A stretch of 64,000 nucleotides of DNA from Escherichia coli (GTDB taxonomy: Bacteria > Pseudomonadota > Gammaproteobacteria > Enterobacterales > Enterobacteriaceae). Shown in pieces: positions 37,001 through 40,000 of this stretch. The position numbers were made by a program. The stretch is from NCBI RefSeq assembly GCF_041886205.1, contig NZ_CP169029.1. One strand, given 5' to 3'. How positions within the stretch are numbered: position 1 is the first letter of the stretch; every line of letters starts with the position of its first letter.

Positions 37001-40000
37001 CAAAAAACAAATTCTCCTTAAAAGCATTATAAAACTTTATCAACACATAACGAAAAACACCTCCTGTTAACCTTTCCTGTTCATAAAACAACAAGCCAAA
37101 AATAGGCGGAAATCTTTTAACCACACCACTTTTAATCCAGTAAGGATGATGATTAGTCTTTACTGGCAGTGAATAAAAGAACAATTCGGTTTCTCTTTTC
37201 CCACCACAAACAGACAAAACAGTCTTATAAAGACTTTTTGAATCACTATATCCTGACACTCCAGACGAATTAGCAGGGTATTTTCTTTTTACTTTTTGCC
37301 TTAATGGAGCTGGAAGGATAATAAAACGGGATGGTAGATAACAATCGCTTTCAGAAGACCTGCATTCGCACACATGAAGATTTATATTTACATCCGGACA
37401 ATTCAAAAACCACACAGAATAATTATCGCCCCGTTTGCAATATGAAACCCATGAATAAATTGCATAAAGTTCAGAAAGTACATCTAACTCTGCTTTTGAT
37501 TTAAATGTGATACCGTTTCTTCGAATTCTCGTTTCCAGCGTTCTCCATGCCGGAGTTTTCAGTATCTCACGAACTTTTTTATTAAGTTCAGCCAGCGATG
37601 GTCCCTGCTCCTGTTTATGTTTCTTCCTGCTGTTAATGATTTCTCTTTCTTTTACTAATTTTTTCTTACTTTTGGGTCCTTTTATCTTTCTTGGCAATGC
37701 TTCATTTAATCTGTGAACAGGATTTTGCTCTCTTCTTTTTTTGAGCTCACAAAACCTCTCATAATGTTTTCTGCACAGTCTTTTCTCCACTGCCATTTTT
37801 ACTGAGAAAACCTGATTGTTACAATTTTTTCTGACACATTTGTTTTTACGTCCGGTCATCCTCTCATCTCCTGAAACCGCAGTATGTCATTAGTTCCCGT
37901 TCGGAAAAACTCACTTCATACTCCATTACACTTTAACGATCATGTCCGTAATTCAGACATTCCATCATTTTTCACGTCCATATTACATGAATGATAAACC
38001 GGATTAGTGTGATCCGGTTCAGCGAAATCAACAGGATAACGGTATGTCATTCAGCCATTCTTCCCTCTCCGCACAAGTGAAATCATATCTGACGTTTCTT
38101 CCTGAAGAAATTCGCCAGAAAATCCTTGAACATCTCCACTGTGTTATTCATTACGAGCCCGTGATTGGCATTATGGGTAAATCCGGTACAGGCAAAAGCA
38201 GTCTGTGTAATGCCATTTTTCAGTCCCGTATCTGCGCCACACATCCTCTGAACGGCTGCACCCGCCAGGCTCATCGTCTTACCCTGCAGCTCGGTGAACG
38301 CAGAATGACGCTGGTCGATCTGCCCGGCATTGGTGAAACACCGCAGCATGATCAGGAATACCGGACACTTTATCGTCAGCTGCTACCGGAACTGGATCTG
38401 ATTATCTGGATCCTGCGGGCTGATGAACGTGCGTATGCTGCCGATATTGCCATGCATCAGTTTTTACTGAATGAAGGTGCAGATCCCTCGCGTTTTCTGT
38501 TTGTTCTCAGCCATGCCGATCGCGTGTTTCCTGCCGGCGAGTGGAACGACACAGAAAAATGCCCGTCCCGTCAGCAGGCGCTCTCGCTGGCGACGGTGAC
38601 AGCCCGGGTAGCAACCCTGTTCCCTTCATCATTTCCGGTACTCTCCGTTGCCGCGCCTGTCGGCTGGAATATTCCGGCACTGGTGTCACTGATGATCCAC
38701 GCACTGCCACCACAGGCAACCAGCGCGGTTTATTCACATATCCGGGAGGAAAACCGCTCTGAACAGGCCCGGAAACACGCACAACAGACTTTTGGTGACG
38801 CCATCGGGAAAAGCTTTGACGCTGCCGTTGCCAGGTTCAGCTTTCCAACCCGGATGTTACAGCTTCTGCGCAAAATCCGGGACCGCATTATCCACCTGCT
38901 GGTCACACTGTGGGATCACCTGTTCTGAGCGCCCCGGAGTCCCCCGTGGCAACCGTATACCTTTACACGACAACGGATTACGGCAGCCACTGCCGTATGC
39001 CGTCTGTCATTATCAATAACGCACTCTTTAATTTCAGAGGTCAGTCATGAATACCAGAATTCTTTTTCCCCTGCTGTTCACTGTGGCATCCTTCTCCGCC
39101 TCCGCCGGTAACTGGGCTGTCAAAAACGGCTGGTGTCAGACCATGACGGAAGATGGTCAGGTGCTGGTAATGCTGAAAAATGGCACGATCAGTATCACCG
39201 ACCTGATGCAGGGGTGCCCAAATGGCGTACAGACGCTCCTGGTACTCATCGGCATTAACGGCAACCTGATCCCCACATCACAAATGTGTAATCAGTAGAC
39301 AGGATTCAGGGCTGTTGAGGTGGAAGCCGGACAGGCGCCGGAAATGGTCAAAAAAGCCGTTCACTCCATAGCAGAGCGTGATGTGTCCGTTTTACAGGCA
39401 TTTGGTGTACGAATGGAATTCACCCGCGGTGATATGCTGAAGGTCTGTCCGAAATTTGTCACATCACTTGCCGGTTTTTCCCCGAAACAGACGACTACTA
39501 TTAATAAAGATTCCGTCCTGCAGGCTGCCCGGCAGGCATACGCCCGGGAATATGACGAGGAAACAACAGAAACCGCTGATTTTGGCTCTTACGAAGTAAA
39601 AGGCAATAAGGTTGAGTTTGAAGTGTTCAATCCTGAAGACCGTGCGTACGACAAAGTGACCGTCACGGTTGGTGCTGACGGTAATGCCACCGGCGCCAGC
39701 GTTGAATTTATCGGAAAATAGCCGGTATGTCGGACTGTCACCCTGTTTTATTGCCCGAAGGCCCTTTCTCACGCGAACAGGCGATGGCTGTCACAACAGC
39801 TTACCGCAATGTGCTTATTGAAGATGACCAGGGAACGCATTTCCGGCTGGTTATCCGCAATGCTGAAGGGCAGCTACGCTGGCGGTGCTGGAATTTTGAA
39901 CCTGATGCCGGAAAACAACTTAATGCGTGGCTCGCCAGTGAGGGAATTCTCAGGCAATAAACGTCATTCATTTCACCCATCAGGCCGCGTCTTCTCCGGG

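Follow-up and report, generated by a model that had tools for sequence, protein, structure and literature searches.

An amber codon very probably disrupts a gene for a conserved, predicted exported 225-residue protein in a CP4-like island of Escherichia coli

The DNA analysed here is a 64,000-nucleotide stretch of an Escherichia coli genome (the window), and the locus with which we are concerned occupies positions 39047–39721 of it, in an island module whose genes are ordered GTPase, disrupted gene, DUF905, DUF932, antirestriction, RadC, DUF987, and CbeA/CbtA. The features of the locus are as follows.

38044–38928, plus strand: upstream GTPase gene, YeeP/YkfA/YfjP-like (Pfam MMR_HSR1, E = 6.5e-15).
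39036–39040, plus strand: Shine-Dalgarno-like AGAGG, 6 nt 5′ of ATG 39047 (sequence reading; duplex of −6.5 kcal/mol).
39047–39106, plus strand: predicted Sec signal peptide of 20 codons (inspection of the translation; a pattern conserved in the family).
39047–39721, plus strand: disrupted gene, interpreted as a pseudogene of a conserved 225-residue secreted protein (end-to-end alignment with the intact 678-bp coding sequences of strains A12 and ECCNB12-2).
39243–39247, plus strand: second allele-specific lesion, TACTC for GCAGCCGT (DNA alignment with intact alleles).
39296–39298, plus strand: premature amber codon TAG with the mutated base at T39296; CAG, encoding Gln85, when intact (DNA and family alignments).
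39320–39721, plus strand: orphaned 3′ part, 133 codons long if read from GTG 39320 and 125 if read from ATG 39344, identical in DNA to strain A12.
39727–39960, plus strand: DUF905 gene (Pfam PF06006, E = 6e-31).
About 39982–40021, plus strand: terminator-like hairpin and T-run 3′ of the DUF905 gene (consensus scan).

The GTPase gene marks this segment as a CP4-like island module, and it is a neighbour of the gene not only in E. coli but also in Klebsiella and in one distant relative. In Klebsiella and in that relative, a protein of 271 residues, the gene again lies 3′ of the island GTPase gene, either directly or past a regulator gene, and precedes DUF932 or antirestriction, RadC, and CbeA/CbtA genes; one relative is instead found on a phage-like contig. 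The DUF905 gene begins only 5 nt past the stop codon of the disrupted gene, an order also seen in relatives, and it is probably part of the same transcription unit. Its own Shine-Dalgarno sequence is weak (−3.5 kcal/mol), and because of this and the 5-nt gap, disruption of the upstream gene could lead to loss of translational coupling or to Rho-dependent polarity. The hairpin that follows it, at 39982–40011, has a 13-bp stem with eight GC pairs, although the number of sites found by the consensus scan is no higher than in shuffled sequence. A scan of positions 38000–41000 against Rfam was negative for known RNAs, similarity to the yeeP-isrC-flu region of K-12 was likewise not detected, and a literature search on the island module yielded incidental mentions only.

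Similar arrangements occur in K-12, in which YkfB and YafY (CP4-6) and YfjT and YfjS (CP4-57) are likewise small exported or uncharacterized proteins encoded between GTPase and antirestriction/RadC genes, and the YkfB gene adjoins the DUF905 gene ykfF. However, neither YkfB/YfjT nor YafY/YfjS has detectable similarity to the 225-residue protein, and a tblastn search of the three K-12 regions CP4-44, CP4-6, and CP4-57 revealed no homologue of it (best E = 1.4).

We note several other features of the window. Further along the island, the longest form of the RadC reading frame (41410–41901, plus strand) starts at ATG 41410, immediately after the antirestriction stop codon at 41407–41409, and has no Shine-Dalgarno match, whereas ATG 41425 is preceded by a strong one (−9.3 kcal/mol) and yields 158 residues, as annotated in relatives; 41425 is thus the likelier start. 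A 214-codon frame at 42204–42848 (plus strand) that has no Pfam match lies between the DUF987 and CbeA antitoxin genes; it corresponds to the 'hypothetical protein' WP_045146861.1 in relatives and is missing from some islands. On the minus strand at 15879–27919 there is an apparently complete contact-dependent inhibition/two-partner secretion locus, which includes a ShlB/FhaC-type transporter gene (26153–27919, minus strand) and a CdiA-like exoprotein of 3259 residues (16361–26140, minus strand) with TPS, haemagglutinin-repeat, and PT-VENN domains. Just 3′ of the CdiA-like gene is a 161-codon frame with no Pfam match (15879–16364, minus strand) that could be the immunity gene, and downstream of this main cdi locus a 307-codon frame at 12973–13896 (minus strand), whose first part is a PT-VENN pre-toxin domain, resembles an orphan toxin cassette of the CdiA C-terminal kind. 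An 864-codon frame at 29621–32215 (minus strand) has weak UvrD-like helicase and ankyrin-repeat signals, and an ankyrin repeat protein is annotated in the matching part of the island in relatives. Finally, ARAGORN reports a tRNA-Ser(GCT) at 57864–57948 (minus strand) inside a 762-codon frame at 57544–59832 on the same strand; a false-positive tRNA call and a spurious frame are both possible.

Translation of the locus gives an 83-residue reading frame from ATG 39047 to the TAG at 39296–39298, seven sense codons (39299–39319), and then a 133-residue frame from GTG 39320 to the TAG at 39719–39721, all on the plus strand and in one frame, with a total of 225 codons from ATG 39047 to position 39721 if both stops are counted. 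A prior sequence-only reading had described the same two frames with the same spacing, which we reproduced exactly. It had also given the downstream frame a GTG start only; GTG 39320 is indeed available, but an in-frame ATG at 39344, which would give a 125-residue product, had been overlooked, and public gene calls for the 3′ frame choose either one. That reading offered two interpretations, namely a single gene of 224 codons interrupted by a nonsense mutation, or two genes that share a frame by coincidence. A shared frame is expected in one of every three cases by chance, and it therefore proves nothing by itself.

Comparison with other E. coli genomes is more informative. When the 831-bp segment at 38950–39780 was used as a megablast query against 5426 complete RefSeq E. 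coli genomes, 2760 records were matched, with the best DNA identity to strains A12 (98.8%) and ECCNB12-2 (96.9%). In both of these strains the locus is one 678-bp coding sequence for a 225-residue 'hypothetical protein' (WP_001097370.1 and WP_001097365.1, respectively), situated between the GTPase and DUF905 genes, and in the DNA alignment the window TAG lies opposite a CAG in both intact alleles (column 253). There are only three differences between the window and A12 within the gene: a synonymous change of CCG to CCA at 39220, the replacement at 39243–39247 of GCAGCCGT by TACTC, which substitutes Val-Leu for Gly-Ser-Arg with the net loss of one codon, and the C to T change at 39296. No differences at all are found 3′ of the amber stop. 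The intact alleles thus have the same locus and neighbours as the window, and in A12 the same post-stop DNA, whereas the window has a TAG at codon 85 and the Val-Leu replacement with its codon loss. The nonsense interpretation is borne out by the CAG to TAG change being the sole alteration at the stop, with the qualification that the intact gene has 225 rather than 224 sense codons, because the window allele lost one at 39242/39243. We note also that the event at 39243–39247 is a compact replacement of 8 nt by 5 nt and not a simple deletion; a repeat search identified no convincing templating repeat nearby.

An obvious concern is that the TAG arose in sequencing or assembly and that the organism itself has an intact gene, particularly as a 55-mer centred on T39296, designed such that every 28-base seed must contain the T, has no match in any of the 5426 complete RefSeq E. 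coli genomes, while the control 55-mer containing CAG matches 2384 places in 1834 of the same 5426 genomes. Similarly, a 49-mer spanning the lesion at 39243–39247 has no match in the 5426 genomes. However, in a larger collection that includes NCBI assemblies and assemblies of SRA runs, the exact 83-residue product is present on 42 contigs (70 index blocks), from independent NCBI assemblies and from separate SRA runs; the carriers include GCA_032531385.1, GCA_002226215.1, GCA_022812545.1, CP057953.1, SRR31093902, and SRR18481734. Site 39296 is moreover not within a homopolymer, and we regard an error as very improbable. Among the carriers, the 5.13-Mb sequence CP057953.1 matches the window without a single difference over 5.4 kb, and four others differ from it by between none and seven bases over 3.8–6.3 kb. 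Another contig with the same amber allele is identical to the window from position 37362 onward and diverges only upstream, which suggests a recombination breakpoint inside a divergently oriented 376-codon frame at 36729–37859 (minus strand); this frame has no Pfam match and lies upstream of the island GTPase gene. Neither an intact-length protein with Val-Leu nor an 84-residue fragment with Gly-Ser-Arg is present in a collection of 15 billion proteins, and the two lesions have thus been seen only together. As judged from these sequences, the amber allele is real, inherited, and rare, being reproducible across independent assemblies and runs, and it is apparently of single origin.

The relationship of the two reading frames can also be evaluated from more distant homologues. 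A search of 5.8 billion proteins for full-length homologues of the intact 225-residue protein identified single proteins of 225–229 residues in Klebsiella, Citrobacter, Enterobacter, and Lelliottia, with approximately 56–65% identity and 92–100% coverage, and these are conserved across the junction between the two window frames. In an alignment of 19 sequences, 17 of the 18 homologues have a glutamine at the position of the stop and the other has an arginine, and the segment flanking the junction, NQQTGFKAVEVE, is conserved in the family as NQQTGF(K/R)AVEVE. Cysteines 30, 57, 82, and 135 are invariant in the alignment, as is, among the other 18 sequences, the glycine at column 66 that is removed by the 39243–39247 lesion. 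The ratio dN/dS between the E. coli and Klebsiella genes (Nei-Gojobori) is 0.13 overall, 0.06 for codons 1–85, and 0.17 for codons 86–225, values that are approximate as dS is near saturation but that are consistent with purifying selection on the intact gene on both sides of the stop. A profile search for distant relatives over 1.84 billion representative proteins returned some full-length proteins of 230–237 residues and also longer ones of 271–491 residues, which match profile positions of about 1–140 as one block; residue 85 is thus within a conserved module rather than at the border between two domains. The extra C-terminal parts of the longer relatives contain no Pfam domains and offer no functional clue. 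A 7945-residue protein with 53 stretches that match profile positions 145–205 is a Thr/Asp/Ala-rich repeat protein, and we treated this as a compositional match.

These alignments show one single protein and rule out the coincidence of two genes, a small secreted protein followed by a 133-residue protein with a GTG start, to which we assign next to no probability. It is true that gene callers annotate two frames in the assemblies carrying the allele, and that both are listed as 'hypothetical protein' at NCBI, but split calls of this kind are seen only in genomes in which the gene has a lesion; no consistent annotation of the homologues as two genes, each with a start of its own, was found. The intact homologues are all single proteins with sequence conserved through the junction, the stop is one base from a glutamine codon and falls inside the conserved module between two predicted beta strands, and the second frame has no good ribosome-binding site.

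The intact protein begins with the sequence MNTRILFPLLFTVASFSASA|GNW, in which inspection reveals a positively charged N-region, a hydrophobic core, and an ASA|G (A-x-A) cleavage motif. We therefore predict, by inspection and with the pattern conserved in the family, that it is exported by the Sec system and processed by signal peptidase I. There is no lipobox cysteine at +1 near the cleavage region, as a lipoprotein processed by signal peptidase II would have, and the first cysteine is residue 30. An AlphaFold2 model of the intact protein constructed with 22 homologues (mean pLDDT 82.3, pTM 0.57) has a beta domain at residues 23–92, a helix-strand unit at 99–137, a variable linker, and a C-terminal domain at 155–224 in which helices pack on four strands; the signal peptide is modelled as disordered, with pLDDT below 50 for residues 1–15. 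Residue 85 lies in this model between the strands 74–82 and 89–92 of the N-terminal domain.

Searches of Pfam, NCBIfam, PHROGs, and PDB sequences with the intact protein and with both fragments identified no significant family, and weak matches to TIGR03066, pdxH, YpdA, and a phage tail PHROG, all far under their cut-offs, were dismissed; Foldseek likewise found no match in the PDB at E ≤ 0.001. The C-terminal domain is predicted from the model to have a helix-plus-sheet fold that may be of the cystatin/PepSY/NTF2-like type. There is no membership of PepSY (PF03413) at the sequence level, in that the intact E. coli protein has no Pfam match and one distant relative scores a sub-threshold 15 bits against the cut-off of 24. 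The modelled fold is a weak pointer towards a binding or inhibitor-type protein of the periplasm, and our best guess, in which we place low confidence, is that the intact protein is a periplasmic accessory protein of this type that belongs to CP4-like integrative elements.

The amber allele is not the only inactivated form of this gene in E. coli. In CP059922.1 a 2-bp deletion at nucleotides 231–232 leaves an 81-residue N-terminal fragment, and four loci from several complete E. coli genomes are interrupted by an IS3-family element, approximately 40 nt 3′ of the position of the window amber codon, with a 3-bp duplication that leaves gene nucleotides 290–292 on both sides of it. In these alleles the gene is likewise split or truncated and the same 125-residue frame is called downstream, but the lesions differ and are independent of that in the window. 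The 125-residue C-terminal frame is called on 569 contigs, far more than the number that carry the amber allele; three further apparent truncations proved to be contig ends. The locus is present in up to about five or six copies per genome, and we suppose that, given this redundancy, losing a single copy may be almost neutral.

We also considered the possibility that the stop is tolerated or even exploited, either by read-through of the UAG to give a full-length protein or by re-initiation at GTG 39320 or ATG 39344 to give a secreted N-terminal fragment together with a cytoplasmic C-terminal fragment, such that a biologically meaningful product is made. Because of context effects, termination at a UAG with A as the next base is comparatively leaky, and near-cognate read-through at UAG would insert glutamine, which here is the original residue; trace amounts of full-length protein might conceivably be made in this way. 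The two in-frame starts lie 21 and 45 nt past the stop, and each is preceded at 7–8 nt by a weak Shine-Dalgarno-like match (−4.6 kcal/mol for GTG 39320 and −4.1 kcal/mol for ATG 39344), so that some re-initiation is possible. The absence of decay in the 3′ part, which is identical to that of the intact allele, would also be expected of a tolerated stop, but it is equally well explained by the mutation being recent.

Other observations argue against a tolerated stop. The stop is not conserved among homologues, being present in none of the 2384 copies, and a sense codon occupies the position throughout the family; nor does a stable, potentially stimulatory RNA structure follow it, the minimum free energy of −19.8 kcal/mol comparing with a shuffled mean of −21.9 kcal/mol (z = +0.65). 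Both results speak against programmed read-through or recoding. The duplex of the site before ATG 39047 with the 16S rRNA 3′ end, with a spacer of 4–6 nt, is stronger than that at any in-frame start 3′ of the stop, and a good ribosome-binding site is thus present for the first ATG only. Furthermore, the C-terminal fragment has no signal peptide, the allele is also altered at the otherwise invariant glycine, and the gene appears to be dispensable, as a frameshift and an IS insertion have inactivated it in other genomes. We consider a meaningful product from a tolerated stop unlikely, with only a slim chance of being correct. There is a similarly slim chance that the amber allele is a leaky or re-initiating form that yields some full-length protein, or an active cytoplasmic C-terminal domain, and that the repeated inactivation of the gene has perhaps been selected rather than reflecting drift.

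The explanation that we strongly favor is that positions 39047–39721 represent one gene of a CP4-like island, encoding an exported protein of 225 residues, that has recently been inactivated by an amber C to T mutation at Gln85. The 83-residue frame and the 125- or 133-residue frame would then be an ordinary pseudogene derived from one ancestral gene, and a recent one, since the 3′ part is still identical to the intact allele. In outline, the intact gene would give a 225-residue product exported via its Sec signal peptide, and in the window lineage a C to T transition at 39296 would have converted Gln85 (CAG) to an amber stop, with the nearby replacement at 39243–39247 also removing the conserved glycine. 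Translation from the site at 39036–39040 would end at 39298 with an 83-residue precursor, of which about 63 residues would remain after cleavage of the signal peptide. This product would retain three of the four invariant cysteines but would end before the final strand of the N-terminal beta domain, losing that strand and all that follows, and it would most likely be misfolded and degraded. The 3′ 125–133 codons, whose start signals are weak, encode no signal peptide, and any product of re-initiation would be expected to remain in the wrong compartment, the cytoplasm.

We interpret the amber allele as an example of routine gene decay in a cryptic island, in a gene that has been disrupted in at least three independent ways, and we suggest that the 83-residue and 125- or 133-residue 'hypothetical proteins' of the window lineage should be merged into one pseudogene. 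The broader significance is in the intact gene, whose product has neither a family assignment nor a Pfam model; it is a common protein, encoded by 1834 of the 5426 complete E. coli genomes and often in several copies, and it defines a family of predicted exported proteins with four conserved cysteines that CP4-like islands carry and that is conserved among enterobacterial genera.
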